From NCBI GenBank assembly GCA_029564765.1, contig JAKQPK010000075.1:4603-68602 (forward strand): DNA of 64,000 nt, in the 5' to 3' direction. Below the pieces are notes generated by a model, which saw only the letters and a list, made by a program, of their open reading frames with translations, had not been told where the DNA came from and did no database searches. Source of the DNA: Candidatus Omnitrophota bacterium. GTDB lineage: Bacteria; Omnitrophota; Gorgyraeia; Zapsychrales; Aceulaceae. Shown in pieces: positions 6,160-26,086 of the stretch (positions are counted from its first letter, which is position 1; each line of letters opens with the position of its first letter). The translations under genes were made by a program, and so were the position numbers.

Positions 6160-6180
6160 TTTGTTGAGAGGAGGTAAGAA

Positions 6181-6585
6181 ATGAATTATGTTCTTTTTGG
6201 CATGATTTATGTTCTAGCCATCATTGTTTTCGTCAGGGTGTGTTGGGCGCACAGGCAAATCCTGTCATGGCCATGGGCCGTGGCCTTCTTTTTATACTAC
6301 TATCTTCAATTTGGTTTTAATGTCTTTGGCCGGATGACCGGATATCATCCGCCATCTGGCCTGTGGGGTGTGCTTATCGTTTGGGGATTTTATTCCTTAG
6401 CTCCTTGGGGCGCGCTGGTTACGGCCATTGTGATGCGATATCAAAGAGCAGGGGGTATCAGAAAGAATCTTATCAAGATCACCGCAGAAGCTTTATTATT
6501 GCTCCCGGTTGTCCTGATCATAACAGCTATGATGTTCCAGCTGAGCATCCTTCTTTTTTATCCACGCTATGACTATATGGGTTGA
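6181..6585 (+). CDS. Small polytopic membrane protein
   Basis: RBS 'gagaggaggtaagaaATG'. Four predicted TM helices. Confidence 0.55.
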   Translation: MNYVLFGMIYVLAIIVFVRVCWAHRQILSWPWAVAFFLYYYLQFGFNVFGRMTGYHPPSGLWGVLIVWGFYSLAPWGALVTAIVMRYQRAGGIRKNLIKITAEALLLLPVVLIITAMMFQLSILLFYPRYDYMG

Positions 6586-6609
6586 TGATCCTGAGTTAGG
6601 GAAGTAATC

Positions 6610-8703: not shown

Positions 8704-8711
8704 AATAATTA

Positions 8712-8864
8712 AAAATTCAAAAGTCAAACGTCAAAATTAAAAGATGAGAAAAAAGTAAAAAGAAAGGCGCTAAATTCGCCGATGTTTTGGCGTTAGTATT
8801 CAGCGAAATGAACAACATAGTAACTGTTGTTGATCATTGTTTTTATTTTTGACTTTTGAATTTT
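8712..8864. repeat. MITE-like non-coding element bounded by a perfect 17-bp inverted repeat 'aaaattcaaaagtcaaa'/'tttgacttttgaatttt'
   Basis: The IR arms are about 120 bp apart and enclose internal hairpins ('aacaaca-tagtaac-tgttgtt'). The same 'aaagtcaaa' terminal motif bounds the element at 10699-10802 and the four-helix-bundle cassette at 28814-29287. Confidence 0.55.
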
Positions 8865-8879
8865 AAATTTTGGATCACT

Positions 8880-9452
8880 ATGCGCATACTATCAGGTCGT
8901 CTCAAAGGAAAAAATTTTTATATGCCTTTTGGCATACGCCCCACATCTGATGTGATGCGTAAATCATTATTCGATTTTCTTGACTCTTATATTCAAGGAT
9001 GTGATTTCATTGATATTTTTTCTGGAAGCGGGGCTGTTGGGCTGGAGGCGATGTCCAGAGGCGCGAAAAATGTCACGTTCGTAGAAAAAGACCTAAAAGC
9101 TGCTAGCGTTATTGAGGAAAATCTGATGCTTTTAGCGCTACCCCTGGCCGAGCGTAAGGACCGCTATTTTAACGTTTTCAAAAAAGATGCGCTATCCGCT
9201 ATTAAAGAATTATTTTCCCAGAAAAAGGCCTTTGATATTGTCTTTATTGACCCTCCTTACGGCAAAGGGCTGGTAAAAAAAGCCTTGAAAACCCTCGAGG
9301 GCTATGATATATTGAAACCCAATTCATTGCTGATTTTTCAACACGAAAAACATGAGGCTTTGCCGCAGACGCAAGGCCGTTTTTCTGTTATAAGGGTAAA
9401 GAAGTTCGGGTCATCATTGCTGACCATCTACAGGAGAACGAGTGATGTCTAG
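8880..9452 (+). CDS. rsmD: 16S rRNA (guanine966-N2)-methyltransferase RsmD
   Basis: 'RILSGRLKGK...P..IRPTSDVMRKSLFDFL', 'DIFSGSGAVGLEA', 'DIVFIDPPY'. The ATG at 8880 is chosen over the ORF-track start at 8856, which overlaps the IR element. Confidence 0.8.
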   Translation: MRILSGRLKGKNFYMPFGIRPTSDVMRKSLFDFLDSYIQGCDFIDIFSGSGAVGLEAMSRGAKNVTFVEKDLKAASVIEENLMLLALPLAERKDRYFNVFKKDALSAIKELFSQKKAFDIVFIDPPYGKGLVKKALKTLEGYDILKPNSLLIFQHEKHEALPQTQGRFSVIRVKKFGSSLLTIYRRTSDV

Positions 9453-9927
9453 GTTGGCCATTTATCCAGGCACGTTTGACCCCATCACATATGGGCATAT
9501 CGATATTATCGCGAGAACTCGCCGTCTTTTTCCACAGGTTGTCGTTGCGGTCGCTCAAACATCCCGCAAGAATTTACTTTTTGATATTGATGAACGCGTA
9601 CGCATGGTCCGTCAGGCCGTCAAGGGCTTATCCGGGGTTCGCGTTGAAGCGTTCAACGGCCTCGTGGTAGATGTCGCGAAAAAATACGATACGAATATCC
9701 TGATCCGTGGATTGAGGATGGTATCGGACTTTGAGTATGAATTTCAGATGGCCTTAACTAATCGCCGTTTGGCTGGCAAGGTCGAGACTGTTTTCTTGAT
9801 GCCGTCCGAACAATATTCGTTTATTTCATCGACCTTGCTCAAAGAAGTCGCGCGTCTTGGGGCGGACATCTCAACGCTTGTGCCAAAGCATGTCGAGAAA
9901 AAGCTTAAGGCAAAGCTTGCATCATGA
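9442..9927 (+). CDS. coaD: Phosphopantetheine adenylyltransferase
   Basis: 'AIYPGTFDPITYGHIDII' is the nucleotidyltransferase H/T-x-G-H motif. Length 161 aa. Confidence 0.9.
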   Translation: MMSRLAIYPGTFDPITYGHIDIIARTRRLFPQVVVAVAQTSRKNLLFDIDERVRMVRQAVKGLSGVRVEAFNGLVVDVAKKYDTNILIRGLRMVSDFEYEFQMALTNRRLAGKVETVFLMPSEQYSFISSTLLKEVARLGADISTLVPKHVEKKLKAKLAS

Positions 9928-10340
9928 AATTTGATATTCGCAGTATTTCTTCGACAGGATGTGCTGTTGAAGGTTTCTTGAAACAAGAAGATTTTTGTGT
10001 TCGTATTCATGAGATCGAATGCCTTGCGCCTATTCAGCTTTCCGGCAGAATAGAAAAAACTTCAGCAATGGTCAGAGCGCAGATCAATGTAAAAACAGTC
10101 TTTCGTTATATATGTGGCCGCTGCCTAGAAACGTGTGATAAAGAGTTTTGTGAGCATCTTGATCTTCATTATCCTGTTGAGTCGCAAGAGAACTACATTG
10201 ATATCGGCGAAGATGTTCGCCAGGAGATCCTGCTGGGATTCCCGGACCGCGTCGTGTGTCAAGACCAATGCAAGGGCTTGTGTCCAAGGTGCGGCGTGAA
10301 TTTAAATCAGGAACAGTGCGGGTGCGGAAAGAATGAGTAA
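9924..10340 (+). CDS. yceD: DUF177 / YceD-family protein (large-subunit ribosomal accumulation protein), located upstream of rpmF
   Basis: Conserved position before rpmF-plsX. CxxC...CxxC pattern 'CGRCLE...CPRCGVNLN'. Confidence 0.7.
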   Translation: MKFDIRSISSTGCAVEGFLKQEDFCVRIHEIECLAPIQLSGRIEKTSAMVRAQINVKTVFRYICGRCLETCDKEFCEHLDLHYPVESQENYIDIGEDVRQEILLGFPDRVVCQDQCKGLCPRCGVNLNQEQCGCGKNE

Positions 10341-10492
10341 GGGGGTAAAGGATTAAAGGATTTCAGGGCTTAAGGTTTATTGGGTTGACTCAAAGAACTC
10401 AGCAAACCCTATAAATTTTGTGAATTCTTTATTCCTCTAACCCTATAACCTTTTAACCTTTTATCAATTTACTTTTAAAATAGGAGCCTAAT

Positions 10493-10690
10493 ATGCCATT
10501 ACCAAAAAGACAACATTCTAAGCAGCGTGGACGTAAGCGTCGCACGCATTGGAAGATCGCGATGCCGAATCTAAGCGTTTGCGGCCAGTGCGGTAAACAG
10601 GTTTTGCCGCATCGCGTTTGTCCTTTTTGCGGATCTTACAAAGGACAACAAGTTATTGTCATTAAGACAAAAGAGAAGAAAAAGAAATAG
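10493..10690 (+). CDS. rpmF: 50S ribosomal protein L32
   Basis: 'MPLPKRQHSKQRGRKRRTHWK...CGQCGK...CPFCG'. Confidence 0.9.
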   Translation: MPLPKRQHSKQRGRKRRTHWKIAMPNLSVCGQCGKQVLPHRVCPFCGSYKGQQVIVIKTKEKKKK

Positions 10691-10698
10691 GTCAAGAT

Positions 10699-10802
10699 TT
10701 AAAGTCAAAAATCAAAGCGATAGCACAAAAAATCATTGAGTTGGTGGAGTTCTTGCGATTGCTGAACTTTGAAATATTTTCTCGCTTAGATTTGACTTTT
10801 AA
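10699..10802. repeat. Second MITE-like element with 'ttaaagtcaaa'/'tttgactttta' terminal inverted repeats, between rpmF and plsX
   Basis: Imperfect 11-bp IR of the same motif family as 8712-8864. No ORF. Confidence 0.45.
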
Positions 10803-10821
10803 TTTTTAAACGGAGCTCAAT

Positions 10822-11808
10822 ATGAACATTATTGTCGACGCGATGGGCGGGGATCATGCTCCGCGAGAAATTGTCGATGGAGCGATCCAGGCGGTTAACG
10901 AATTCAACGTTAACATAACGTTTACGGGCGTTGAAGCCAAGATCCGAGCTGAGTTAGCCAAGTACGATTATCCGAAGGAAAAGATCAAGATCATCCATAC
11001 CGATGAAGTCGTGGATATGCACGATCCGGCTACCACCTCGATCCGCAAGAAGAAAAATTCTTCCATTTCTTTGGGTATCAATCTTCTGAAAGAATCCACA
11101 ACCTATAACGCGTTTATTAGTGCCGGCAACACGGGAGCGGTCGTGTGCGCGGCCACATTCTTGCTGGGAATGCTTCCGGGCGTGGAGCGTCCTGCTATTG
11201 GCCTTGTCATCCCAACCTTAAATAAATTTTCTTTCTTAATCGATGTGGGCGCCAATACAGACCCGAAGCCGGAGCATTTATTGCAGTCCGCGATCATGGC
11301 AAAGGTATACGCTCAAGAAGTCATGGGCATCAACGATCCGCGCATTGGTTTGCTGAATATTGGCGCCGAAGAAAGCAAGGGGACGGATTTCGTCAAAGAC
11401 GCGCATAAACTTTTTCTGGAGCGTTTGTCCAATTTTGCTGGCAATGTCGAAGCTAATGAGATTTTTGCGGGCCGCTGTGACTGTATCATTTGCGATGGCT
11501 ATGTCGGTAACGTAGTCATCAAGATCTCAGAAAGCCTGATGGAGTCCGCCTTAACGTTGATCCGGCGTGAGGTCAAAAAAAGTCCTATGTCTATGCTGGG
11601 AGCCATGCTCATGCGTGGATGCATGCGTGATATCAAGAAGCACGCGGATTATACCGAATACGGCGGCGCACCGCTTTTGGGTGTCAACGGCCTTGTGATG
11701 ATCAGTCATGGGCGCTCAAACGCGAAAGCTATTAAGAACGCGATCCGGGCGACGATCCACGAGATCGAAAACAATGTCATTGACCATATCATTCAAGAGG
11801 TTGTCTAA
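10822..11808 (+). CDS. plsX: Phosphate acyltransferase PlsX
   Basis: 'IVDAMGGDHAP', 'SAGNTGA', and the conserved yceD-rpmF-plsX-fabH-fabD operon context. Confidence 0.9.
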   Translation: MNIIVDAMGGDHAPREIVDGAIQAVNEFNVNITFTGVEAKIRAELAKYDYPKEKIKIIHTDEVVDMHDPATTSIRKKKNSSISLGINLLKESTTYNAFISAGNTGAVVCAATFLLGMLPGVERPAIGLVIPTLNKFSFLIDVGANTDPKPEHLLQSAIMAKVYAQEVMGINDPRIGLLNIGAEESKGTDFVKDAHKLFLERLSNFAGNVEANEIFAGRCDCIICDGYVGNVVIKISESLMESALTLIRREVKKSPMSMLGAMLMRGCMRDIKKHADYTEYGGAPLLGVNGLVMISHGRSNAKAIKNAIRATIHEIENNVIDHIIQEVV

Positions 11809-12788
11809 TGACGCCTGTCCAGATCACTGCTGTTGGCCATTATGTTCCTTCCCGCAAGTTGACCAATGCTGATCTTGAGAAGATAGTCGATACATCTGAT
11901 GAGTGGATCGTCACGCGCACAGGCATCAAAGAGCGCCGCATTGCCGGCGAGCACGAAAAAACAAGCCATTTAGCGATCGAGGCTGCCCGCCAAGTTTTAC
12001 ACAACGCCAAGATCGCCGCGAGCAAGATCGACCTGATTATCGTCGCGACAACGTCCCCAGACAGTAATTTTCCTTCTGTCGCATGCCTTGTTCAAAAAGC
12101 CTTGGGCGCAAGATCCGCGATTGCTTTTGATGTGTCAGCTGCTTGCACAGGATTTATTTACGCGATCTCAGTGGCGCATCAATTTTTATTGGCGAAAACA
12201 TACAAGAATGCTCTTGTGATCGCCGCGGACCGTTTGACGACCATGATCGACTGGCAAGATCGCAATACATGTGTTTTGTTCGGTGATGGGGCGGGGGCGT
12301 GCCTGCTGGAGTCCGGGGATAAAAAGGGGATCTTAGCAGAACATCTTGAAAGCTACGGTGAGTATGGTGAGCTGATGAAGATCATCGTTCCTGAAACACG
12401 GCACCCTTTAAAACCAAAGCATGCAAATGGAGTTTTACCTTATATTCAGATGCAAGGGCCTGAGCTATTTAAGATCGCGGTTAATTCGATGGCGGACTGC
12501 GTCGAGAAAGCCTTGGAAAAAGCCAAGATCACGATCAGCGAGGTGGCGTGCGTTGTGCCTCATCAGGCCAACGACCGTATCATCAGCGCGGTCGCGAAAA
12601 AGCTGGACATCCCTAAGGAGAAGTTTTTTATCAATATCGAGAAGTATGGCAATATGTCAGCAGCTTCAGCAGCGGTAGCGCTTTTTGAAGCAGTTGAGTT
12701 GGGGCGTATTCGCAAAGGCGATTACGCGGTCTTGGTCGCGTTCGGGGCAGGGCTTGTCGCTGGTGCGATCGTCATCAAATGGCAATAA
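11808..12788 (+). CDS. fabH: 3-oxoacyl-ACP synthase III
   Basis: 'GHYVPSRKLTNADLEKIVDTSDEWIVTRTGIKERR', active-site Cys 'AACTGF', 'HQANDRII'. Its ATG overlaps the plsX stop. Confidence 0.9.
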   Translation: MTPVQITAVGHYVPSRKLTNADLEKIVDTSDEWIVTRTGIKERRIAGEHEKTSHLAIEAARQVLHNAKIAASKIDLIIVATTSPDSNFPSVACLVQKALGARSAIAFDVSAACTGFIYAISVAHQFLLAKTYKNALVIAADRLTTMIDWQDRNTCVLFGDGAGACLLESGDKKGILAEHLESYGEYGELMKIIVPETRHPLKPKHANGVLPYIQMQGPELFKIAVNSMADCVEKALEKAKITISEVACVVPHQANDRIISAVAKKLDIPKEKFFINIEKYGNMSAASAAVALFEAVELGRIRKGDYAVLVAFGAGLVAGAIVIKWQ

Positions 12789-12801
12789 AGGAATATTGTT
12801 T

Positions 12802-13728
12802 ATGATAAATGTGGCATTGATTTTTCCAGGTCAGGGCGCTCAAAAGGTGGGCATGGGAAAGGAGTTGTACGATGCGATCCCAGCGGCCAAAGCTATTTTT
12901 GATTCTGCTCAGGCAACACTCGGCAATGACCTTCTTGATGTTATTTTTAATGGGCCCCAGGAAAAGCTGACACTTACATCCTACTCACAGCCGGCGATCG
13001 TTTCTTGCAGTATCGCAGGATTAAAGGCGCTTCAAGCGCATCCGAAATTTGGCGAGCTGAAGATCGCTTTTACGGCTGGACTTAGCTTGGGGGAATATTC
13101 GGCCTTGATCGCATCTGGAGCGCTCTCTTTTGAGGATGGTATTCGCTTGGTGCAAAAACGCGGCGCTTTTATGGATGAAGCCTGCAAGCTGCAACAAGGT
13201 GCCATGGCGGCCATTATCGGATTTCCTAAGGACAGGCTCAAAGAGATCTGCCGCGAAACCGGAGCGCAAGTCGCTAACTTTAATTCTCCAGAACAGATCG
13301 TCATTACAGGTCATGCTGACAAGGTCCAGGCTGCTGTTTCCGCGATCGAAAAAGAAAATCCAAAGAATATCGTTATGCTTGAAGTGGCCGGAGGATTTCA
13401 TTCAAGCCTGATGAAGTCTGCCGCGGAAAAGTTTTCTGCGGAGCTTTCAAAATTTAATTTGCAGACATTGAGCATCCCCCTCGTTGGCAACGTCAAAGGT
13501 GTGGCCGAAACAGATCCTGAAATCATCCGCCAAAACCTGCCTTTACAGATCACCTCATCTGTTCTCTGGGAAGATTCTGTCCGTTTTATGGCCGCGCAAG
13601 GTGTGAAGTATTTCATTGAGATCGGCCCTGGCAAGATCCTCAAAGGCCTTATTCGTCGTATCGATCCTACGTTAACTGTCTTTAACATTGAGAAGCCGCA
13701 GGATATAGAAACAGTATTTAGCATTTAG
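12802..13728 (+). CDS. fabD: Malonyl-CoA:ACP transacylase
   Basis: 'ALIFPGQGAQKVGMG', active-site 'GLSLGEYSAL'. The ATG at 12802 is chosen over the ORF-track's upstream extension at 12685, which overlaps fabH. Confidence 0.9.
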   Translation: MINVALIFPGQGAQKVGMGKELYDAIPAAKAIFDSAQATLGNDLLDVIFNGPQEKLTLTSYSQPAIVSCSIAGLKALQAHPKFGELKIAFTAGLSLGEYSALIASGALSFEDGIRLVQKRGAFMDEACKLQQGAMAAIIGFPKDRLKEICRETGAQVANFNSPEQIVITGHADKVQAAVSAIEKENPKNIVMLEVAGGFHSSLMKSAAEKFSAELSKFNLQTLSIPLVGNVKGVAETDPEIIRQNLPLQITSSVLWEDSVRFMAAQGVKYFIEIGPGKILKGLIRRIDPTLTVFNIEKPQDIETVFSI

Positions 13729-13877
13729 TCTTTAGTGTTTAGCTTTTGCCGACCTATCGAAATACTGTTTGAAGATACTAGATATTTTTCATTTTTCCCG
13801 CCAAAGATTTTCCATATTTTTAATGAATCACTGATATAAACTATGTATACTAATATATATTTATATATAAGGACGTT

Positions 13878-14312
13878 ATGCCTTGCCTTGGGACCAAAGA
13901 AATAGAAGCGATCCTGCCACAGAAATACCCATTTCTGCTCATTGATAGGGTTTTAGATTACAAAGAAGATGACTATCTTGTTGCTATTAAGAATATCACG
14001 GGTAACGAATGGAGTTCTGTTGACAGCGTCAGCCAGCTTGAATGTTGGCCGGAGATGTTGGCTGTAGAAGGAGCTTTGCAGGCTGCAATTATTTTGTATC
14101 ATAAAAGTAAGAATTTCCCCGGAGAGACTCCGGTATATTTTATTGGAAAAGTTATTTCTGAGTTTTATTGCTTACCTAAAATTGGTGATTCTTTAAATAT
14201 TGTAGTTTCCGCAGAAAAGCTAATGCGCATTGGTGGATATGCGCGTATCGATTTAAAGAATCAAAAAGAAAGAATTTCCAGCATCGAAATCTTTTTTAGC
14301 GTAAAGAGATGA
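13878..14312 (+). CDS. FabZ/FabA-like hotdog-fold 3-hydroxyacyl-ACP dehydratase. First gene of a low-GC coupled module
   Basis: 'LPQKYPFLLIDRVL' matches the FabZ N-terminal signature. 144 aa. Preceded by a ~150-bp AT-rich gap. Its stop overlaps the next start. Confidence 0.7.
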   Translation: MPCLGTKEIEAILPQKYPFLLIDRVLDYKEDDYLVAIKNITGNEWSSVDSVSQLECWPEMLAVEGALQAAIILYHKSKNFPGETPVYFIGKVISEFYCLPKIGDSLNIVVSAEKLMRIGGYARIDLKNQKERISSIEIFFSVKR

Positions 14313-15538
14313 TTAAACAAAAAAAAGACGAACGACGTGTCGTGGTCACAGGCTTAGGCGTTGTTTCGTCTATTGGTATTGGCTGGCAGGAATTCTGGAA
14401 AAACCTTCTCGCTGGAAAATCCGGTATCAGCAAGATCACTTCATTTGACACATCCTCCTACGACCGTCACTATGGCGGTGAAGTCAAAGATTTTAATCCC
14501 TATAAATTTATTGATAAGCGAAAAGCGGACCGTATGGGCCGGGCTTCACAGATGGCTATTGCTAGCTGTAATCTTGCATTATCTGACGCAGATTTCTCTT
14601 TTGCAAGAGTTGGCAGAAGAAAGGTGGGGGTTTTTATCGGTACCACAACAGGAGAAATTGCACGCCTAGAGCAATACTACAAGACTTGGCATAGCACGAA
14701 CAAAAAAATACCAGTTCCTATGAACCTAATTACTTTTCCAACCTATTGCCTAAGCTCACATGTTAGTAGATATTTTCGGCTTTCTGGACCAAGCGTGGTT
14801 TTTTCTAATGCATGCGCTGCCGGGAATTATGCCATTGGTTACGCGTATGATTTGATAAAGAATGGGCGTATTGAACTTGCTATCGCTGGCGGAGTTGATG
14901 GCATTTCAAATATTGTGTTTACTGGCTTTAGTCGTTTATTAGCTATAGCTCCAGAAAAATGTCAACCTTTTGATAAGGATAGAAAAGGGATGATTCCTGG
15001 GGAGGGGTCTGGAATTCTTTTTCTGGAGAATTTAGATAGCGCATTAAAGAGAAAAGCTAGAATCTATGCTGAAATTTATGGATATGGTCTTTCTTGCGAT
15101 GGCCATCATATGACAAGCCCTTCTCCTGACGGAGTAGTTCTTTCAATAAAGAAATGTTTAGATGCTTCAGGAGTCTGTTGCGATGCTGTAGATTATGTCA
15201 GCGCTCATGGGACCGGTACAATAGAGAATGATCGATTGGAATGCCAAGCTATAAAAACTATTTTTGGGGCACGGCGGAGAAAAATTCCCGTATCATCTAT
15301 TAAGTCTATGATTGGTCATTGCATGGGAGCATCTTCTGCGATAGAGGCGATTACATGTTGTCTTGCGATAAAAGATCAAAAGATTCCACCAACAATTGGT
15401 TTTAACGAAAAAGATCCTGATTGTGATATTGATTGCGTTCCAAATAAATCCCGAGAAGCAAAAGTAGGCGTTGTTTTGAACAATTCGCTAGCATTTGGTG
15501 GTAATAACGCTAGCTTGCTATTAGGAAAAAGAAAATGA
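14309..15538 (+). CDS. Beta-ketoacyl-ACP synthase (KAS I/II-like condensing enzyme)
   Basis: Catalytic triad context 'SNACAAGNYAIGYA', 'SAHGTGT', 'GHCMGASS'. 409 aa. Overlaps its neighbours by 4 nt. Confidence 0.8.
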   Translation: MIKQKKDERRVVVTGLGVVSSIGIGWQEFWKNLLAGKSGISKITSFDTSSYDRHYGGEVKDFNPYKFIDKRKADRMGRASQMAIASCNLALSDADFSFARVGRRKVGVFIGTTTGEIARLEQYYKTWHSTNKKIPVPMNLITFPTYCLSSHVSRYFRLSGPSVVFSNACAAGNYAIGYAYDLIKNGRIELAIAGGVDGISNIVFTGFSRLLAIAPEKCQPFDKDRKGMIPGEGSGILFLENLDSALKRKARIYAEIYGYGLSCDGHHMTSPSPDGVVLSIKKCLDASGVCCDAVDYVSAHGTGTIENDRLECQAIKTIFGARRRKIPVSSIKSMIGHCMGASSAIEAITCCLAIKDQKIPPTIGFNEKDPDCDIDCVPNKSREAKVGVVLNNSLAFGGNNASLLLGKRK

Positions 15539-16950
15539 ATGATGAAAGATATCAGGTAATCATTATTGGGGCTGGAATTGGTGGCCTAGTTTCTGGATGT
15601 CTTCTTGCGCTTGCAAAGAAGAAGGTTTTAATTGTCGAAAAGAATGATGTTCCAGGAGGATACTGCACATCGTTTAAGCAATTTGGTCTGCATTTCGATA
15701 CTTGTGCCCATTCATTGGGAGATTTATCGAAGCAAGGCAAGTTGTTTGCGATACTAAATAAGATTGGAGTCTTAGAAAAGGTAAAGAGAGTCCGGTACGA
15801 TCCAGGAGACATCATTGTCACAGAAGATTTTGAAGTGTGTTTTAATAATTCTTTGGATAAGACAATAAGAAATCTTTCAAGCATTTTTCCAAAAGAAAAA
15901 GAAGCAATTTCTGCATTCTTTAAGAATATTGTATGTCGACAAGATTTTGTTCAGGCAATGCAGCTTCATAAACAAACTTTTAGCATGCTTCTTGATGATT
16001 ATTTTGTTGATTTGCGACTTAAGAAAATTTTAGGTCTTTTTCCGCTTGGAAATCTCGGAACTCCGGCAAACCACGTCTCAGCGTTTATTGCCGTGAAACA
16101 TTTCAAGCAATTCATTGTTGATGGAGGTTATTATTTATCTAGGGGGATGGATGATTTACCAAGAGCTTTGATGCGGCGCTTCACAGCTCTTGGCGGAAAG
16201 CTTAGCTTTGGATCAGAGGTTGCCTCGGTGAAATGCAGAAATAATACAGCTGTAGGGATTATTTTACGAAATGGTCGTGAATTTTCTGCAGATTTTATTA
16301 TTTCTGCTTGCGACCTAAAGAGTGTTTTCATGAGAATGTTAACTGATTTGAAAACAAGGAAGCGTGCAAAAAATATTATTCGAGAAATGCAGCCATCCCT
16401 TTCTTTATTTGTTGCGCATGTTGTATTGAAAAAGAAGCTATGCAATTCTTATTCTCCTGGGACAAATGTCTGGCGTCTTCGTAATTATGAATATGATCGA
16501 GTGCATAAACGGCAAATTAATTATTCTGATATGTCTGTAGGGTGGATAATGCTTAGAATTGGTATCAGAAAAAAGACTGTAACGCTATTTACGAACGCTC
16601 CTTATCGGGGTAGTTCGTTTTGGAGGAGGAATAGGGTTGATTTCTTTAGCAGAATCCTAAAATTAGCCTCAGATGTAGTCCCTGGAATAGATAACAATGT
16701 AAAATCAGTTCAGCTTTTAACTCCTTTTGGGCTAAACAAGATGACTGGAAATTATAATGGTGCAGGATATGGATGGGCCAGCACTCCGAATCAGTCTTTT
16801 GTAGCTGACCTCTTAAGCGACGGAGTCGCTAAGAACCTTTTTTTATCTGGTCATTGGGGTTCAGTTGCCCAGGGAATCCCTGGAGTGGCTATTGCAGGAG
16901 AGCGTGTTTCAAGAATAATTTTAGCTAGAATGAAAAATGTCAAGATCTAA
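15535..16950 (+). CDS. FAD/NAD(P)-dependent oxidoreductase of the phytoene-desaturase/amine-oxidase (CrtI-like) family
   Basis: Rossmann motif 'VIIIGAGIGGLVSGCLLA...VLIVEKNDVPGG'. About 470 aa, typical CrtI/RetSat-family length. Confidence 0.7.
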   Translation: MNDERYQVIIIGAGIGGLVSGCLLALAKKKVLIVEKNDVPGGYCTSFKQFGLHFDTCAHSLGDLSKQGKLFAILNKIGVLEKVKRVRYDPGDIIVTEDFEVCFNNSLDKTIRNLSSIFPKEKEAISAFFKNIVCRQDFVQAMQLHKQTFSMLLDDYFVDLRLKKILGLFPLGNLGTPANHVSAFIAVKHFKQFIVDGGYYLSRGMDDLPRALMRRFTALGGKLSFGSEVASVKCRNNTAVGIILRNGREFSADFIISACDLKSVFMRMLTDLKTRKRAKNIIREMQPSLSLFVAHVVLKKKLCNSYSPGTNVWRLRNYEYDRVHKRQINYSDMSVGWIMLRIGIRKKTVTLFTNAPYRGSSFWRRNRVDFFSRILKLASDVVPGIDNNVKSVQLLTPFGLNKMTGNYNGAGYGWASTPNQSFVADLLSDGVAKNLFLSGHWGSVAQGIPGVAIAGERVSRIILARMKNVKI

Positions 16951-18235
16951 TAATCGAAAAAAAGTTGTGGTAACTGGCTTAGGACCAATTACATCAGTTG
17001 GAATTGGAGCTGATGCATTATGGCAATCGCTTTTTGAGGGAAAAACGGACATTGTTGAACATAAGCATATTTTGTCAGGGGAGCTAATTGATACCTTTCC
17101 TTTGCATATGATTCAATCGTTTAATCTCGATGATTTTAAGATTCCTGAGAATGGGCTGAAATCTATACGAGACTGGAAAAAAGACGCTATAGATAGAGAG
17201 TTGAGTCTTTTTCTTGCTTCAATTAAGGTTGCTCTTGACGATAGCAAAATAAAAAATTCTTATCGTAAGGATATCGGTTTTGTTTTTACTCAAGAAATGC
17301 CAGGGGTAGAAGATTTTTTTGAAAAGGTCATCATAAAGACAATTAATTTTAGTCGTACAGGTAAAAAAATGACACACAAAAATGTTAGCGAATACTTGTA
17401 TGAAGCATGCGAGGCCCAGGGATACGATCTCCAGACTTTTATGTATATATATTTTGCCCTAAAGTGTTTTGGTTGCCACGGATATTCTTTATTTATCAAC
17501 AATGCATGTGCATCAGGATCCTATGCGATTGAAGAAGCTGCTCGGATTATTCGTTCTGGCCATCAGAAAATTATAATTGTTTCCGGGGGAGACTCTCCGA
17601 TAAAATCTTTTAAATATAATTGGTTTAAAAAGCGTGGCCTGTACTCTAGCGATGGTCTTGTAAGACCATTTTGTCGTAACTCTAATGGAATTGTTTTTGG
17701 TGAAGGCGTTTCATCTCTGGTATTGGAAGATTTTGATCATGCAAAAAAGCGTGAAGCTAAGATTTACGCGGAATATCTTGGAGGGGGTTTTTCACAGGAA
17801 GCATGGAAGGTGACATTGCCAAATATCACCGAGAATTTCTATTTGTCAGCCTTTCAGAAAGGACTTAAGGAGTCGAAAGTTGATATTTCGGAAATCGATT
17901 TTGTTAATGCCCATGGGGTAGGCATTAAAATTACTGACAATTATGAGGCTCGTACGATTAAGAAAGTTTTTAGCAGGTTAAAGAATAAGCCTTTAGTTAC
18001 CGCGTTTAAACCTTACATTGGTCATAATTTAGGTGGGAGCAGCTTGATCGAGAGCGTGATATCTATACTTTGTTTAAAAAACAATTGTATTCTGCCAACT
18101 TTAAATACGGAAGATTATGATGAAAATCTTGGGATAAATCTTGCAAGAGAGAAAGTTGAGAAAGATTTACGCATTTTTGCAAAGATGTCGTGTGGTTTTG
18201 CTGGGTTTAATTCGGTTATTTTCTTTAGAAAGTAA
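16937..18235 (+). CDS. Second beta-ketoacyl-ACP synthase-like protein (divergent KAS)
   Basis: 'NNACASGSYAIEEAARII' (Cys retained), 'NAHGVG', 'GHNLGGSS'. Overlaps the upstream gene by 14 nt. Confidence 0.7.
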   Translation: MSRSNNRKKVVVTGLGPITSVGIGADALWQSLFEGKTDIVEHKHILSGELIDTFPLHMIQSFNLDDFKIPENGLKSIRDWKKDAIDRELSLFLASIKVALDDSKIKNSYRKDIGFVFTQEMPGVEDFFEKVIIKTINFSRTGKKMTHKNVSEYLYEACEAQGYDLQTFMYIYFALKCFGCHGYSLFINNACASGSYAIEEAARIIRSGHQKIIIVSGGDSPIKSFKYNWFKKRGLYSSDGLVRPFCRNSNGIVFGEGVSSLVLEDFDHAKKREAKIYAEYLGGGFSQEAWKVTLPNITENFYLSAFQKGLKESKVDISEIDFVNAHGVGIKITDNYEARTIKKVFSRLKNKPLVTAFKPYIGHNLGGSSLIESVISILCLKNNCILPTLNTEDYDENLGINLAREKVEKDLRIFAKMSCGFAGFNSVIFFRK

Positions 18236-18241
18236 TTATCC

Positions 18242-20434
18242 ATGGCTCAATCATTTAGTTTATTGCGAATACTTTTTATCTTATCTGGCCTTACGCTGTC
18301 CCTAACCTGTTTCGCGCTTCTTTTTATAATTTTAAAATTTGGAAGAACCAAATTAACAAAAGTTTGGGCTTGTTTTAATTTATCAGTCTTTGTTTGGGGA
18401 TTAGGTGTTTCGATGATTGGGTTTGCGAAAAATGATAGCGAAGCTTGGTTAGCTTGGAAGATTGGTCATGCGGGAGCGATTTTTATTGCTGGAACGTTCT
18501 TTCACGTCGTCAGCGTCCTGACTGATAAGGGGTTGCGGCGCTTTATCGCAGTTGTTTATAGCTATTCTTGTGTTTTCTTGCTTTTGAATATCCTAGATCA
18601 ACTTAATATCAGTATCATTGAAAAATTTGATGGAATATATTTTATATTTCCAGAAAACTTTTTGTACCCATTCTTAATTACAGCTTGGGTGGTAATCGTT
18701 TTATTTGCATTCATTATTTTAATACAATCTTTGCGGACTGTCAGCCAAAGATTATACAATCAGCTTCGGTATTTTCTGATTGGGACGACAGTCGGATTTC
18801 TTGGCGGTCTTAGCAATTTTCTCCCAATGTTTAATGTAAACATTTATCCTTTAGGAAATTTTTTGATATCATTTTATTGTTGTTTCTGCAGCTATGCAAT
18901 CTTGAGGCATCGCCTTATGGATGTCAGCATTGCGATAACTCGGACGGGGATTTTTGTTTTAGTCTATTCGCTCGTTCTTGGCATCCCTTTTGCCATCGCT
19001 TTCGGACTGAAAGATTATTTATTTTCTATTCTTGGAAATATTTGGTGGATTATTCCTTTATTTGCCTCAACCATGCTGGGCACTGCTGGGCCATATCTTT
19101 ATTTCTTTATCCAGCGCAAGGCAGAAGAAAAGTTATTAGCCGACCAAAAGCGCTACCAATCGACCTTAAAGCAAGCGTCGGCAGGCATGACGCGTATCAA
19201 GGACCTAAAAAAGCTTTTAAATTTGATCGTCTATATTCTCTCTAGAACGGTTAATCTAACGCATGCATCTCTGTATCTCTACAATCCAAAAAGTCGTGAC
19301 TATACCCTTGAGGCTGTGAGAGGCGAGAAGCTTTCGAAGAAGAATTATTACATTAGCCGTCGCTGTGCGTTGATTGATTATCTGGAAAAAGCAAAGCTGC
19401 CTATCGTAGCTGAAGAGATCAAGCAGCAAAGTCAAGATTACAACAATGAAAACTTGAAAGAAGTCTACGCGCAGCTTAAGGAAATTGGCGCGGAAGTTGC
19501 TGTTCCGATCCTTACGGAAAAGCGCTTGTTGGCAATAGGTGTTCTCGGTAAAAAAAATACAGGATCGATGTATACACCGGATGACTTGACAGTTTTCTCA
19601 ATTCTGGCAAGCCAGGTCGCGCTTGCTATCGAAAACGCTCAGTTCTACGAAGAGTCCAAACAGACCCAGGAACAACTTTTCCAGGCGGAAAAAATGGCGA
19701 CGATCGGCACGATGGCTGACGGCCTGTCACATCAGATCAATAATCGTCTACATACGCTTGGCTTTATTGCCGGAGACGCTTTGGACACCATCAACCTGAG
19801 CAAGGATGTTCAGGATCCTTCAAGGTTCCAGTCGATCTTGGCCGAAATATCCAAAGCACTTGTAAAGATCCAGGAAAATGTCCGTCAAGGCGGCGAGATC
19901 GTTCAAGGATTATTGCGCTATACGCGAAAAGGCCAGGAAGGCTTTGGGGAGGTGGTCTTTGACAAGCTTGTCGATGAAGTTGTTGAGATGGCGCAATTCA
20001 AGATCAAAAAAGAATATGTGGCGATCGTTAAGGACTATCCTCAAGATCTGCCTGGGATCCATGGGAATTTTACGCAGCTGCAAGAAGTCTTTTTTAATAT
20101 CATTGATAACGCGTATGACGCGATCATGCAAAAGAAACATGAGATCGCGGATGAAAATTTTAGCGGCAAGATCAAGATCTCAACTCGCCAGACCGAGAAA
20201 TTTTTGGAGGTCAATGTTCTCGATAACGGCATGGGCGTTAAAGAAGATGACCAGACAAAGCTCTTTACACCATTTTTCACGACAAAAGTGTCAAGTCGTA
20301 AAGGTACGGGATTGGGGCTTTATGTGATCAAGAAGATCGTTGAAGACAACCATCAGGGAGAAGTCTTCATTTCCTCCGAACATAAAGTAGGGACATTGTT
20401 CATTGTCAGGCTACCGATAGGAAAGAAGGGATAA
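18242..20434 (+). CDS. Sensor histidine kinase with a polytopic (7TM-type) N-terminal sensor, a GAF-like region, and HisKA/HATPase
   Basis: About seven N-terminal TM helices. H-box 'DGLSHQINNRLHTL', N-box 'FFNIIDNAYDA', G-box 'GTGLGLYVIKKIV'. Confidence 0.8.
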   Translation: MAQSFSLLRILFILSGLTLSLTCFALLFIILKFGRTKLTKVWACFNLSVFVWGLGVSMIGFAKNDSEAWLAWKIGHAGAIFIAGTFFHVVSVLTDKGLRRFIAVVYSYSCVFLLLNILDQLNISIIEKFDGIYFIFPENFLYPFLITAWVVIVLFAFIILIQSLRTVSQRLYNQLRYFLIGTTVGFLGGLSNFLPMFNVNIYPLGNFLISFYCCFCSYAILRHRLMDVSIAITRTGIFVLVYSLVLGIPFAIAFGLKDYLFSILGNIWWIIPLFASTMLGTAGPYLYFFIQRKAEEKLLADQKRYQSTLKQASAGMTRIKDLKKLLNLIVYILSRTVNLTHASLYLYNPKSRDYTLEAVRGEKLSKKNYYISRRCALIDYLEKAKLPIVAEEIKQQSQDYNNENLKEVYAQLKEIGAEVAVPILTEKRLLAIGVLGKKNTGSMYTPDDLTVFSILASQVALAIENAQFYEESKQTQEQLFQAEKMATIGTMADGLSHQINNRLHTLGFIAGDALDTINLSKDVQDPSRFQSILAEISKALVKIQENVRQGGEIVQGLLRYTRKGQEGFGEVVFDKLVDEVVEMAQFKIKKEYVAIVKDYPQDLPGIHGNFTQLQEVFFNIIDNAYDAIMQKKHEIADENFSGKIKISTRQTEKFLEVNVLDNGMGVKEDDQTKLFTPFFTTKVSSRKGTGLGLYVIKKIVEDNHQGEVFISSEHKVGTLFIVRLPIGKKG

Positions 20435-20459: not shown

Positions 20460-20852
20460 GTGATTGAAAAAAGAAAATTGAAAACATATAAAGATCTTAT
20501 TGCTTGGCAGAAGTCTTACAGTTTGTGCTTAGAAATATATCGGGCAACGAAGATATTCCCGCAATCTGAACAATATGGCCTGACCGCACAAATGAAGCGA
20601 AGCGCCCTTTCCGTTCCGTCAAATATTGCTGAAGGGTATGTGCGGCACGGAACGCGAGACTATATTCGTTTTCTTTATATCGCTTACGCTTCGCTTGCAG
20701 AACTAGAAACACAATTGCTTCTTGCAAAAGATTTGGGATATATTAAATCTGATGACTTTAAGCAGATCATTGGTCTGCAAAACGAGGTTCAGAGGGTTAT
20801 GCGCGGGCTAATCGAGTCGCTTAAATCAAGATCTTCACAAAATGCCCTGTAA
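20460..20852 (+). CDS. Four-helix-bundle protein (23S rRNA intervening-sequence protein family)
   Basis: 'YKDLIAWQKSYSLCLEIYRATKIFPQSEQYGLTAQMKRSALSVPSNIAEGY' is the canonical family signature. Flanked by the 11-bp IR 'agggataaagg'/'cctttatccct'. Confidence 0.85.
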   Translation: MIEKRKLKTYKDLIAWQKSYSLCLEIYRATKIFPQSEQYGLTAQMKRSALSVPSNIAEGYVRHGTRDYIRFLYIAYASLAELETQLLLAKDLGYIKSDDFKQIIGLQNEVQRVMRGLIESLKSRSSQNAL

Positions 20853-20899: not shown

Positions 20900-21259
20900 A
20901 TGCCAAAACTACTTATTGTTGATGATGAAACGGATATCACGGAGTTCGCGAAGCATTTCTTCGAGAAGCGGGGGATCGAGGTAATTACAGCTTCAGGAGG
21001 TCAGGAAGCACTGGATCTGATAAGCTTAAGCAATCCTGATCTCACGCTTTTGGATGTGCGCATGGGAGAGGTTACAGGTGTTGATGTCTTGCGTAAACTT
21101 CGCGAATCAGGTAATATGATGAAAGTTGTCATGGTAACTGGCGTAGAGGATCCCGCTATTATTAAGCAAGCACAAGATCTGGGCATAAGCGGTTTTATAC
21201 ATAAACCCTTAGCCTTGGATGAATTAGAGCGGGTTGTGATGAAGGAATTAGAAGGATAA
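20900..21259 (+). CDS. Stand-alone response-regulator receiver (CheY-like)
   Basis: 'LLIVDDE...D', 'LLDVRMGEVTGVDVL', 'VVMVTG'. 119 aa. Confidence 0.85.
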   Translation: MPKLLIVDDETDITEFAKHFFEKRGIEVITASGGQEALDLISLSNPDLTLLDVRMGEVTGVDVLRKLRESGNMMKVVMVTGVEDPAIIKQAQDLGISGFIHKPLALDELERVVMKELEG

Positions 21260-21333: not shown

Positions 21334-22539
21334 ATGTCACTCAATTACAAAAAAGAACTCGAACGTGCAAGCCGTGTTATGATCCGGATCCATGATCCGA
21401 GCATCTTGATACGTTTGATCATTCGCTTGATCGTGCGCAAGGTTGACGTTAAGCACGCTGGCGTTTTGTTGTTTGACGCTAACCGCGATTGCTACGTTCT
21501 TACTCTCTCAGGCGGGGAGAGCGGGACCCGTATCCCGCAGGGGTTCGCGAAATTTGTTAAAGAAAACCCATTGATCAAATTCTTCGTTGATAAAGAATAT
21601 CAATCGCTTATAAGGCGCCATGGGGCTTTGACCATCGAAGAACTTAACCGCATGATCTGGAGCGAAAATGTCTTGCCGCAGAATGAACAGCATAAAGATT
21701 TCTTGCACAAGATCGCTCAGCAGATGGAGATGTTCAATGTAGCGGTCTGTATCCCAGCGTATTTTCGTGAGCATCTTGTAGCGCTTTTGCTTCTTGGCGA
21801 AAAGACAAACGGACATGTTTATCAGCAGGAAGAGTTTGATTTTCTAGCGGCGCTGTCTTCGGATGTTGCCATGGCCATTCAGAACGCGCGGCTTATTGAG
21901 GATTTGCGCAAAGAAGTTGAGAAGAATAAAGCGCTTTTTATCAACACCGCTCTTTCACTTGCTTCGGCCATAGAGGCTAAAGACCGTTACACACGTGGCC
22001 ATACAGAGCGTGTTACAAAATACGCGTTAGCGATTGCCGATGAGCTTGTACACAACCGCGCCTTTCCTCTTTCGAAAAATTTCTCTGAGGATCTGTACAT
22101 TGCGTCTTTGTTGCATGATGTAGGGAAAATAGGCGTTCCTGAGAGCATCTTGAGCAAAGAAACAGGCCTTACGGACCAGGAATTCCAGCAGATACGTCTA
22201 CATCCGCTAAGAGGAGCCGATATTTTAAAAGCTATTCCGGAATTTGAAGAGTGCCTTAAGGGTGTTAAATATCACCACGAGCGCTATGATGGCCGAGGCT
22301 ATCCGGAGGGCTTAAAAGGCGAAGAGATCCCGCTCGTTGCTGCCATTGTCGCTGTCGCGGATAGCTATGACGCGATGACCTCTGATCGAACTTACCGCAA
22401 AGCCATGTCCAAGGACGCTGCTATAAGCGAGATCGAGAAAAATATAGGTATTCAATTTCATCCGGTGGTGGCAAAGGCGTTTTTGGAGGTGTTGAGGAAA
22501 AGCGAAAAAGAGTTAATAAAAGTTACAAATGGTTACTAG
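21334..22539 (+). CDS. HD-GYP domain phosphodiesterase with N-terminal GAF-like region
   Basis: 'HTERVTKYALAIADEL', 'HDVGKIGVPESIL', 'HHERYDGRGYPEGLKGEEIP'. Confidence 0.85.
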   Translation: MSLNYKKELERASRVMIRIHDPSILIRLIIRLIVRKVDVKHAGVLLFDANRDCYVLTLSGGESGTRIPQGFAKFVKENPLIKFFVDKEYQSLIRRHGALTIEELNRMIWSENVLPQNEQHKDFLHKIAQQMEMFNVAVCIPAYFREHLVALLLLGEKTNGHVYQQEEFDFLAALSSDVAMAIQNARLIEDLRKEVEKNKALFINTALSLASAIEAKDRYTRGHTERVTKYALAIADELVHNRAFPLSKNFSEDLYIASLLHDVGKIGVPESILSKETGLTDQEFQQIRLHPLRGADILKAIPEFEECLKGVKYHHERYDGRGYPEGLKGEEIPLVAAIVAVADSYDAMTSDRTYRKAMSKDAAISEIEKNIGIQFHPVVAKAFLEVLRKSEKELIKVTNGY

Positions 22540-22661: not shown

Positions 22662-22934
22662 TTACGGGATCAGGTTATCTTCAAGGCAATCATCCATATC
22701 GCCTCCTAGTTCTTCCAGCGAACCTCTGCTGATTTTGATGGAATGTGCGAATTCACCAACGCTATCTTTTGCATAGCCCTCGCGGATATTCTGCTTTGCG
22801 CTTCTGGCCGCATCGCATATTTGACTTACCAGTCGCAGTCGCGACTTTTGGAAGGCCCCTGTCATTTTATTGATAAGACGCCTGATCTCGCAAACATTCT
22901 TGTAAAATTCCAGATTTTCGTAGGCTCGACCCAT
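22662..22934 (-). CDS. Four-helix-bundle protein (IVS-protein family), short member. The start is uncertain because the ORF extends to 23018 and overlaps the kinase gene's end
   Basis: 'NIREGYAKDSVGEFAHSIKISRGSLEELGGDMD' family-type C-terminal half. Confidence 0.6.
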   Translation of the reverse strand: MGRAYENLEFYKNVCEIRRLINKMTGAFQKSRLRLVSQICDAARSAKQNIREGYAKDSVGEFAHSIKISRGSLEELGGDMDDCLEDNLIP

Positions 22935-22983
22935 AAGGCAACCTTTAGTAACCAATAGTAACTTATCATAACCTTTTAGTAAC

Positions 22984-25717: not shown

Positions 25718-26086
25718 TTAATCAACAAGGTTAAGTTTTTTGATAAGGTTACGAATCATCTTAGATTCAAACTGAATTTTCTCAATCAAGCGAGTTTTAA
25801 ACTGGTTTTCGATATATTTTAAGTCATAACAAATTTCAAGTTGCGTTTCAAGCTCGGAGCAGGACCCAAGCGCGTGAAAAAGGAATTGTCGATATTCTTT
25901 ATTATGATAACGGCTAAATCCTTCTGCAATATTTGAAGGTATTGAGATTGCGGATCTGCGCATTTGAGAAACAAGAGAAAAGAGTTCTTCTTTTGGAAAT
26001 ATTTTTGTTCTTTCGTATATTTCTAAGACAATATCCTTCCCCAGGCTCCAGATTTTTAGTTCCCTAAAGCTTTTTATCTTATCCAT
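25718..26086 (-). CDS. Four-helix-bundle protein (IVS-protein family)
   Basis: 'IKSFRELKIWSLGKDIVLEIYERTKIFPKEELFSLVSQMRRSAISIPSNIAEGFSR'. Flanked by the perfect 15-bp IR 'gtatttagtatctag'/'ctagatactaaatac'. Confidence 0.85.
   Translation of the reverse strand: MDKIKSFRELKIWSLGKDIVLEIYERTKIFPKEELFSLVSQMRRSAISIPSNIAEGFSRYHNKEYRQFLFHALGSCSELETQLEICYDLKYIENQFKTRLIEKIQFESKMIRNLIKKLNLVD

Follow-up and report, generated by a model that had tools for sequence, protein, structure and literature searches.

A putative acyl-chain synthase module coupled to a seven-transmembrane kinase in an Omnitrophota genome: a candidate lipid-derived signalling system

Introduction

A 64,000-nucleotide stretch of a Candidatus Omnitrophota genome (GenBank assembly GCA_029564765.1, contig JAKQPK010000075.1, forward-strand positions 4,603 to 68,602; hereafter the window) carries four tightly coupled genes directly behind the fatty acid biosynthesis operon plsX-fabH-fabD, and raises the question of what these genes make and to what end. 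All four are on the forward strand, and they encode a hotdog-fold protein (13878–14312, 144 aa), a β-ketoacyl-acyl carrier protein synthase (KAS) that we designate KAS-A (14309–15538, 409 aa), a CrtI-like FAD oxidoreductase (CrtIL; 15535–16950, 471 aa), and a second synthase, KAS-B (16937–18235, 432 aa). The open reading frames (ORFs) overlap by 4 nt (hotdog/KAS-A), 4 nt (KAS-A/CrtIL), and 14 nt (CrtIL/KAS-B), and the gene for a 730-aa histidine kinase (HK1; 18242–20434, +) starts 6 nt past the KAS-B stop codon. A preliminary description of this DNA, made from its sequence, had reported the same ORFs and coupling behind an AT-rich gap of about 150 bp between fabD and the hotdog gene, and all of this is as described, the gap measuring 149 bp (13729–13877). 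Our own reading, to which we give a probability of about one half (0.5), is that the module comprises a synthase for a lipid-derived signal together with its cognate receptor, in strain-specific 'dialects'.

The enzymes and the kinase sensor domain are exchanged together

HK1 has matches to PF16927, GAF, and HATPase_c, with a seven-transmembrane (7TM) sensor domain at about residues 1–235 that lies wholly within the membrane, followed by the GAF, DHp, and ATPase domains; its H-box (LSHQINN) is intact. A genome of the same genus (G139) is syntenic with the window over the whole region, and on comparing the two the identities are 81% for PlsX, 80% for FabH, and 73% for FabD on one side, and 78% for the receiver (REC) and 79% for the HD-GYP protein encoded downstream of HK1 on the other. 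Between these the values are 66% for the hotdog protein, 60% for KAS-A, and 39% for KAS-B, and in the tailoring slot an unrelated 383-aa S-adenosylmethionine (SAM) methyltransferase stands in place of CrtIL. HK1 itself is 35% identical in the 7TM domain, and 75%, 69%, 90%, and 81% identical in the linker, GAF, DHp, and ATPase parts respectively.

A metagenomic relative (L155) is still closer to the window and gives a similar picture, with identities of 93% for both REC and the HD-GYP protein and 83% for the hotdog protein, but only 32% for CrtIL and 39% for KAS-B. In consecutive 50-aa bins KAS-A is 94, 72, 30, 44, 70, 40, 62, 72, and 37% identical to its L155 counterpart, and HK1, also compared in bins, is 42, 26, 22, 40, 66, 84, 96, 92, 94, and 98% identical and so on, such that the 7TM domain stands at 22–42% and the protein past about residue 250 at 84–98%. 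A further locus, L154, has the same allele as L155. Among three close relatives (the window, G139, and L155) there are therefore three alleles, deeply diverged from one another, of a block some 4.3 kb long that includes the greater part of KAS-A, the tailoring gene, KAS-B, and the sequence for the 7TM sensor domain of HK1.

The base composition follows the same boundaries. GC over the module is 0.384, compared with a genome mean of 0.458 (s.d. 0.021) in same-sized windows, placing it at the 0.7th percentile, and GC at third codon positions (GC3) is 0.31–0.36 as against 0.49–0.59 for plsX, fabH, and fabD (genome ORFs have a mean GC3 of 0.495 and a first percentile of 0.316). The low-GC3 tract coincides with the 4.3 kb block in all three relatives. 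The low GC on which the preliminary description remarked is thus borne out. It was there called consistent with horizontal acquisition, but a recent transfer of the entire module was rejected, as the locus is syntenic in other genera and families, with the same site being filled in G139, G089, L074, L077, L148, and many metagenome loci, and only the inner cassette moves.

The same pattern recurs in a second pair of loci (L113 and L127), which are 86–91% identical in a chain-length-factor (CLF)-like KAS, KAS-A, KAS-B, the first of their CrtIL proteins, both HD-GYP proteins, and the kinase core, the exceptions being the kinase-adjacent CrtIL at 34% and the 7TM domain at 33%. In 41 pairs of loci whose kinase cores share 60% identity or more, identity in the 7TM domain correlates with that of the adjacent CrtIL (r = 0.93) and not with that of the kinase core (r = 0.07), and conservation of CrtIL (86%) is matched by conservation of the 7TM domain (93%). 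The DNA reaching from the greater part of KAS-A to the 7TM sensor, with the tailoring gene and KAS-B in between, behaves as one replaceable specificity cassette. Because enzymes and sensor domain are swapped together in this way, a signal and its receptor are suggested.

What occupies the variable slot differs among relatives, and includes PF07993 thioester (fatty-acyl) reductases, nitroreductase-family and GMC flavoenzymes, several methyltransferases, a LuxD-like acyltransferase-methyltransferase fusion, a PP-loop ATPase with an NAD-binding dehydrogenase, and a ferredoxin/flavodoxin-like protein; no lipid acyltransferase was seen among these slot genes. These are enzymes of kinds that would release and tailor a small molecule in free form, and such tailoring genes, together with the cassette behaviour, disfavour a route to bulk membrane lipids. 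In one Omnitrophota cluster (L131, 9085–9939) an IS-type integrase (rve) is found inside the tailoring slot, which fits active gene turnover.

Linkage to the 7TM kinase and the HD-GYP output

We surveyed the linkage of these genes at the best 80 genome loci, which come from the Omnitrophota, the Nitrospirota (Thermodesulfovibrionales), and some loosely labelled metagenome-assembled genomes, with no anammox locus among the 80. Sequence downstream of CrtIL is present at 65 of the loci, and a 7TM (PF16927) histidine kinase is encoded by the very next gene in 53 of these and within two genes in 60. KAS-A lies no more than four genes upstream of CrtIL in 59 of 75 loci. The preliminary description had suggested that the kinase gene could be co-regulated with the module, and the linkage of the kinase gene is indeed conserved (53/65). 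There are also CrtIL-kinase pairs without any KAS genes (L015, L082, L087, L117, and L146). We found no paper on the function of the HisKA_7TM sensor, on the kinase linkage, or on the cassette.

In Omnitrophota loci the kinase gene is followed by those for a receiver and an HD-GYP protein. The receiver of the window (20900–21259, +; PF00072, 92 bits) stands alone with no output domain, and is conserved downstream of HK1 in the Omnitrophota loci. The next protein (21334–22539, +) has a GAF-like part and an HD-GYP part with intact LLHDVGK and HHERYDGRGYP motifs, the latter part matching the NosR-family cyclic di-GMP (c-di-GMP) phosphodiesterase model with 137 bits, and on these matches it is likely to provide a c-di-GMP phosphodiesterase output.

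HK1 and the receiver are split by a gene for a four-helix-bundle protein of the 23S-rRNA intervening sequence (IVS) family (20460–20852, +; PF05635, 131 bits). Such genes vary in position and sequence among relatives, and this one is probably a passenger. Two further PF05635 genes, at 22662–23018 (−) and 25718–26086 (−), bring to three those in and around the signalling genes; G139 has one between fabH and fabD, and the L155 copy is 76% identical to that of G139 and 36% to that of the window. Their behaviour is that of mobile passengers.

A second 7TM histidine kinase, of the HisKA type (HK2; 22984–24600, −; PF16927, HisKA, HATPase_c), is encoded convergently to the HD-GYP gene, a position kept in G139, L014, and L155. 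HK1 and HK2 have the only two 7TM-kinase sensor domains in the genome, and in bins along its length HK2 is 16, 22, 12, 32, 28, 48, 70, 76, 57, 57, and 71% identical to its counterpart in G139.

The hotdog protein and the two ketosynthases

The hotdog protein is a FabZ-fold homologue. It scores 28 bits with PF07977 (cut-off 23) and 52–62 bits with FabZ models (52.6 with TIGR01750, cut-off 155, and 62 with NF000582, cut-off 113), and matches many FabZ structures in the PDB, the best being 8AYD, the amxFabZ of Kuenenia (70 bits). However, its earlier designation as a dehydratase is not upheld, as the catalytic His (H48 of amxFabZ, in the GHFP motif) is replaced by Ser, although the catalytic Glu is kept, and this His is missing in all four members of the subclass (the window, G139, L014, and G089). 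The FabZ proteins of fuller clusters in relatives retain GHFP. With the His lost across the subclass, the hotdog protein is thus conserved without being a dehydratase of the conventional kind.

Both KAS-A and KAS-B have an intact Cys-His-His triad and active-site Lys (NACAAG/NACASG, HGTG/HGVG, and K..GH), and all orthologues of each keep the triad. Against the fabF equivalog model (TIGR03150, cut-off 493.75 bits) they score 416 and 217 bits respectively, compared with 632 for the true fabF on contig C69. KAS-A orthologues across the phylum are 52–59% identical, and the best PDB matches of KAS-A are 9S5H_B (428 bits) and then 6KXD, the ishigamide ketosynthase (KS) Iga11 (354 bits), with ordinary FabF structures reaching 308 bits at most. 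By these scores KAS-A is probably an active-type ketosynthase of the amxFabF2 / ishigamide Iga11 clade. The amxFabF2 part of this assignment goes through 9S5H, which is presumably the amxFabF2/amxFabFmut heterodimer, having two different acyl carrier protein (ACP)-synthase chains in addition to the similarity. KAS-B is diverged, with a KP[YL][IV]GHNLG motif and an N-terminal insertion. A role for KAS-B as a chain-length factor was considered and ruled out, as the triad is intact in all orthologues.

The CrtI-like flavoenzyme

CrtIL is full length and free of frameshifts, and every family-invariant residue is present, including GxGxxG and E35; the frameshifted pseudogene for which the preliminary description had allowed is not what is found here. 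It scores 80 bits with PF01593 and 103 bits with the crtI_fam model (TIGR02734), and with a cut-off of 238 bits in the latter case it does not belong to the carotenoid-type subfamily by score. An AlphaFold2 model (pLDDT 87.6) has the three-domain fold of the CrtI type, and the best Foldseek match is the carotenoid desaturase 4REP (TM 0.81, 18% identity), followed by 4DGK and 5MOG. A true CrtI-family gene is located elsewhere in the genome, at C30:294818–296212 (crtI_fam 400 bits, above the cut-off; ORF 1486–2928 (−) of C30:293318–297712), where it adjoins a TPR protein gene, and suggests that this small genome also has carotenoid-type chemistry separate from the module.

A precedent for such an enzyme acting on acyl chains is UfaD, a CrtI/phytoene-desaturase-like FAD enzyme of a bacterial furan fatty acid pathway, which makes a conjugated diene on a fatty acyl chain, acts on phospholipid-bound chains with an activity seen only aerobically, and is accompanied by a SAM methylase, UfaM (PMC7380195). 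By description only, the sharing of one tailoring slot by CrtIL and methyltransferases is reminiscent of the UfaD/UfaM pair, but UfaD is not linked to KAS genes or to a kinase.

A synthase apparently split over three loci

The preliminary description placed the module where fabG-acpP-fabF normally sit, but the module does not replace that trio, which is intact on contig C69 of this genome (1.86 Mb in 76 contigs, 98% complete). It was also said to lack a ketoreductase (KR), and there is indeed no ACP, KR, or enoyl reductase (ER) within the four-gene locus, but a CLF-like KAS, a KR, a FabZ, and an ACP are present at two other loci.

The genome holds six KAS I/II-type genes. One of them, on contig C30, encodes a protein in which the triad is lost (Cys to Phe, His to Asn, His to Glu), and is followed by genes for a FabG-like KR and a true FabZ. 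In the fuller clusters of other genomes the upstream KAS has lost the triad too (Cys to Phe/Tyr, His to Asn/Ala, and His to Glu over these and the C30 protein), as is the case in CLFs, and an equivalent triad-less, chain-length-factor-like state has been described for amxFabFmut (preprint 10.64898/2026.05.19.726425). We scored the presence or absence of CrtIL and of the CLF-like KAS in a phylum sample of 151 genomes, with orthologues of the latter being split from FabF hits by identity (at least 47% as against at most 41%). CrtIL is patchily distributed (16/151 genomes), and CLF-like orthologues are present in 14 of the 15 other CrtIL-positive genomes compared with six of about 135 CrtIL-negative ones. 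One of these six is G139, in which the module has a methyltransferase.

The protein encoded by an orphan ACP gene on contig C61 shares about 50% identity with ACPs of the cluster type, as against 25% with the AcpP of this genome; the neighbourhood of the gene contains smc and acyl-CoA dehydrogenase-EtfBA genes and gives no clue to the fate of the product. Such components are collinear in fuller relatives, with the order methyltransferase-KR-CLF-FabZ-KAS-A-ACP-CrtIL-kinase in the Nitrospirota, and CLF-(fatty-acyl reductase)-KR-ACP-FabZ-KAS-A-(tailoring genes)-CrtIL-kinase-REC-REC-HD-GYP in the Omnitrophota. In the present genome, a KS with its triad, a triad-less CLF, a KR, a dehydratase (DH), and an ACP, with no ER, are all accounted for by the window, C30, and C61, and the system is here apparently split over these three loci (window; C30, CLF-KR-FabZ; C61, ACP). 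The four genes would then be that part of a split, ER-less, ACP-dependent acyl-chain synthase of the KS/CLF type which is linked to the fab operon.

No FabI, FabK, FabL, or FabV is recognisable in this 98%-complete genome, and many same-class Omnitrophota genomes with an otherwise full type II fatty acid synthase also have no recognisable enoyl-ACP reductase. The acyl-CoA dehydrogenase and EtfB/EtfA-ferredoxin operon on C61 (9078–12207 of its stretch), which is divergent from the orphan ACP gene, could be a candidate for the absent activity.

We found no radical-SAM gene on the window contig (C35), beside the C30 and C61 loci, or among the cluster ORFs scanned in relatives, and with no such partner a ladderane product is unlikely. 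A 424-aa ORF of L013 that had been taken as a radical-SAM proxy was discarded, being the N-terminal part of a 7TM kinase.

Two other loci bear on the lipid and polyketide repertoire of the genome. A separate cluster resembling a type II polyketide synthase (PKS) is located on contig C18 (C18:24000–41548, ORFs 6139–14576), and encodes an ApbA-type reductase, a KAS with its triad, a triad-less KAS (VSDRASA / CADGAGT / FGNMLG), two small ORFs, an ACP, a PF04199 cyclase, an SRPBCC polyketide cyclase, and a short-chain dehydrogenase/reductase (SDR). On contig C43 (C43:25108–28656, ORF 1459–2358) there is an SDR whose second-best NCBIfam match is KdsR (217 bits, cut-off 400), a possible hint of sphingolipid-type metabolism.

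Comparison with known systems

Fatty acid synthase clusters with phytoene-dehydrogenase-like genes were reported in Kuenenia, Desulfotalea, and Geobacter (Rattray et al., PMC2649909), and the Kuenenia homologues fail to complement crtI (Javidpour et al., PMC4790861). Cluster I of anammox bacteria (Kuenenia kuste3603–3608) comprises amxACP, amxFabZ, amxFabF2, amxFabFmut, a phytoene-dehydrogenase homologue, and a B12 radical-SAM protein; amxFabZ and the amxFabF heterodimer have been characterised (Dietl et al., PMC10139942; preprint 10.64898/2026.05.19.726425), and the cluster has been called exclusive to ladderane producers (PMC10139942; preprint 10.64898/2026.05.19.726425). The system described here resembles it in the amxFabZ-like hotdog protein (8AYD), the probable amxFabF2-like KS (9S5H_B), and, outside the locus, the candidate dedicated ACP (PMC2649909; PMC4790861; preprint 10.64898/2026.05.19.726425), as well as in the presumed pairing of a KS with a triad-less KAS, the CrtI-like FAD enzyme (at family level), and the absence of an ER. 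It differs in having no radical-SAM protein, in the loss of the catalytic His that amxFabZ retains, in the presence of a second triad-bearing KAS (KAS-B) at the locus, and in the dispersal of CLF, KR, FabZ, and ACP, with CLF and ACP being in-cluster only in fuller relatives. It also differs in its operon with a 7TM kinase, a receiver, and an HD-GYP protein, in the replacement of the cassette, and in its occurrence in non-anammox phyla.

The combination of KS/CLF, KR, hotdog DH, and ACP with no ER is shared with the highly reducing type II PKSs (ishigamide Iga10–16 and aryl-polyene Ape), and because of it enoyl or polyene chains are predicted. These systems differ in that the module has neither a starter-unit activating enzyme nor Ape-type export or anchoring genes, and the CrtI-like flavoenzyme and the sensor kinase are integral to it. 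On the basis of these relatives, anammox Cluster I and the highly reducing type II PKSs, the module does not appear to be an ordinary membrane fatty acid pathway. The view that it is not ordinary saturated fatty acid synthesis had already been advanced in the preliminary description, and agrees with KAS-A and the hotdog protein being closest to amxFabF2 (probably) and amxFabZ and to the ishigamide KS; of the polyene- or ladderane-like lipid proposed there, the resemblance to polyene and 'ladderane-cluster' chemistry stands, but a ladderane is unlikely with no radical-SAM protein.

The organisation of the locus also recalls signalling systems. In the diffusible signal factor (DSF) system (RpfF/RpfC/RpfG) a synthase acting on fatty acid intermediates is encoded beside a membrane sensor kinase, with an HD-GYP c-di-GMP phosphodiesterase as output, and in PhcB/PhcS of Ralstonia the synthase beside the sensor is a methyltransferase. 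The module shares with these the placing of a synthase next to a sensor and, with DSF, the HD-GYP output, but this is an analogy only, as the synthases are not homologous and the sensor is a 7TM-GAF kinase rather than RpfC or PhcS; domain scans found no RpfF crotonase-family domain in the locus. Similarly, in pherotype loci such as agrBDCA of staphylococci and comCD of streptococci the signal genes and the sensor domain are hypervariable, and the kinase core and the regulator are conserved. The signals there are peptides, whereas the variable block here encodes enzymes of the lipid/polyketide type, and this too is an analogy only. Compared with DesK/DesR, the module has a 7TM-GAF kinase, a receiver with no output domain, and an HD-GYP protein as the next gene product, and no DNA-binding regulator.

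A proposed signalling pathway and its alternatives

In the pathway we propose, KAS-A would act as a condensing enzyme partnered by the CLF-like KAS, KR, and FabZ of C30 and the ACP of C61, with KAS-B as a second, active-type condensing enzyme, and the hotdog protein, having lost its His, may serve in an accessory role other than dehydration, possibly in releasing the chain or as a subunit that partners another protein. The product of the synthase would be an unsaturated or polyene-type acyl chain, and CrtIL could alter the double-bond pattern of this lipophilic product by desaturation, isomerisation, or saturation. The 7TM domain of HK1 would then recognise the product, or an enzyme acting on it in the membrane, and HK1 would signal through the stand-alone receiver to the HD-GYP phosphodiesterase, leading to hydrolysis of c-di-GMP.

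Several points weigh against this proposal. The roles given to the His-less hotdog protein and to KAS-B are guesses. The identity of 9S5H with amxFabF is inferred, the code being missing from the text of the preprint (10.64898/2026.05.19.726425), and the C30 trio and C61 ACP are assigned by phyletic co-occurrence and similarity and not by linkage in this genome. As to the cassette, the DNA encoding CrtIL and the 7TM domain is adjacent, so that a single recombination tract could make the two diverge together with no functional match between them; the pairs that were compared lack phylogenetic independence; and the sensor of HK2 is hypervariable too (12–32%, compared with 57–76% in its core), as sensor domains often evolve fast. 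Furthermore, no exporter gene was seen, and the REC and HD-GYP genes are usually not adjacent in Nitrospirota loci.

A plausible but, we think, unlikely alternative is that the module remodels membrane lipids, with unsaturated or polyene chains entering the membrane and the 7TM kinase reading membrane state in the manner of DesK. This would accord with the position of the module directly past plsX-fabH-fabD in several lineages, with the wholly intramembrane sensor of HK1, and with the action of the CrtI-family UfaD on phospholipid acyl chains (PMC7380195). However, homeostasis does not predict enzyme and sensor alleles that are 23–40% identical between strains with flanks that are 78–93% identical, relatives have genes for thioester reductases, methyltransferases, GMC oxidoreductases, and LuxD-like proteins but no lipid acyltransferase gene was seen in them, the output is a receiver and an HD-GYP protein and not a transcription factor for lipid genes, and the distribution is patchy (16 of 151 genomes). 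Far less probable is the related proposal that the module, acquired as a whole by horizontal transfer and replacing fabG-acpP-fabF, makes bulk lipids of an unsaturated, polyunsaturated, or ladderane-like kind without the need for oxygen. Although the atypical composition, the homology that three of its four proteins show to those of anammox Cluster I, and the absence of an ER are all in keeping with it, it is at odds with the intact fabG-acpP-fabF on C69, the lack of a radical-SAM gene on the contig, by the partner loci, or among the cluster ORFs scanned, the missing catalytic His of the hotdog protein, and a locus that is syntenic across genera with only the inner cassette exchanged.

Rather less probable than membrane remodelling, but more probable than the bulk-lipid route, is that the module makes a specialised secondary metabolite of the polyene type or a protective lipid, along the lines of aryl polyenes or ishigamide, and that the two-component system just happens to be adjacent. 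The KS/CLF, KR, DH, and ACP set with no ER and the resemblance of KAS-A to the ishigamide KS fit this, precomputed Pfam hits place the hotdog proteins in ApeP/ApeI-like families, and 'ladderane' biosynthetic gene cluster (BGC) calls of the antiSMASH type are reported in Omnitrophota. But it leaves unexplained both why the 7TM domain is exchanged jointly with the enzymes in a kinase that is otherwise conserved, and why there are CrtIL-kinase pairs with no KAS genes, and we saw none of the adenylating, aryl-starter, or export/anchoring genes that characterise aryl-polyene clusters. The CrtI superfamily includes saturases, and CrtIL could on that account be thought to act as the absent enoyl-ACP reductase, none of FabI, FabK, FabL, and FabV being detectable in a 98%-complete genome. 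We consider this highly improbable and rejected it, as the phyletic pattern is not complementary: G139 and many same-class genomes lack FabI, FabK, and CrtIL alike, G021, G117, G143, and G035 hold CrtIL together with a FabK-like protein or FabI, and a methyltransferase can take the CrtIL slot.

Implications

Were the product a signal, bacterial signalling would gain a new chemical class, in which dialects differ from strain to strain, and this in phyla that have no cultured model. The pairing of CrtIL with the 7TM kinase and their joint replacement give a first functional lead for the uncharacterised HisKA_7TM sensor family. We raise tentatively, as a possibility that we think rather doubtful, that the module represents an unrecognised family of systems, widespread among uncultivated anaerobes (Omnitrophota, Nitrospirota, and others), for signalling between cells by lipid-derived compounds, in which a KS/CLF synthase and interchangeable tailoring enzymes would give strain-specific signals that are read by the 7TM kinase with c-di-GMP as output, organised in 'pherotype' cassettes. 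On this view the ladderane cluster of anammox bacteria would descend from the family, having gained a radical-SAM protein.

At the level of protein families, the enzyme set of Cluster I without the radical-SAM protein is common in Omnitrophota and Nitrospirota, contrary to the view that only ladderane producers have it. Structural work on the anammox proteins of Cluster I, as the presumed ladderane machinery, is active, and the wider spread narrows what Cluster I can do and offers many natural variants for functional work. A metagenome survey has reported antiSMASH 'ladderane' calls, with function unknown, in Omnitrophota and other phyla, and the clusters described here are a concrete explanation for such BGC calls outside anammox bacteria in genome-mining surveys.

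Flanking genes

Domain profile matches identify the genes 5' of the module as, in order, recG, rsmD, coaD, yceD, rpmF, plsX, fabH, and fabD. The plsX (10822–11808, +; TIGR00182, 349 bits), fabH (11808–12788, +; TIGR00747, 411 bits), and fabD (ORF from a TTG at 12685 to 13728, +; TIGR00128, 315 bits) matches are all above cut-off, and together the three genes (10822–13728) form a housekeeping operon of normal composition. The longest fabD ORF overlaps fabH by about 100 nt, but its family match begins at residue 43, and the true start is probably near 12811. A scan of the gap between fabD and the hotdog gene for sigma-70-like promoters or terminators gave nothing above chance, and a search of the gap and the locus against Rfam gave no family match. 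Farther downstream, the window contains a single ORF of 2619 aa (29713–37572, +).

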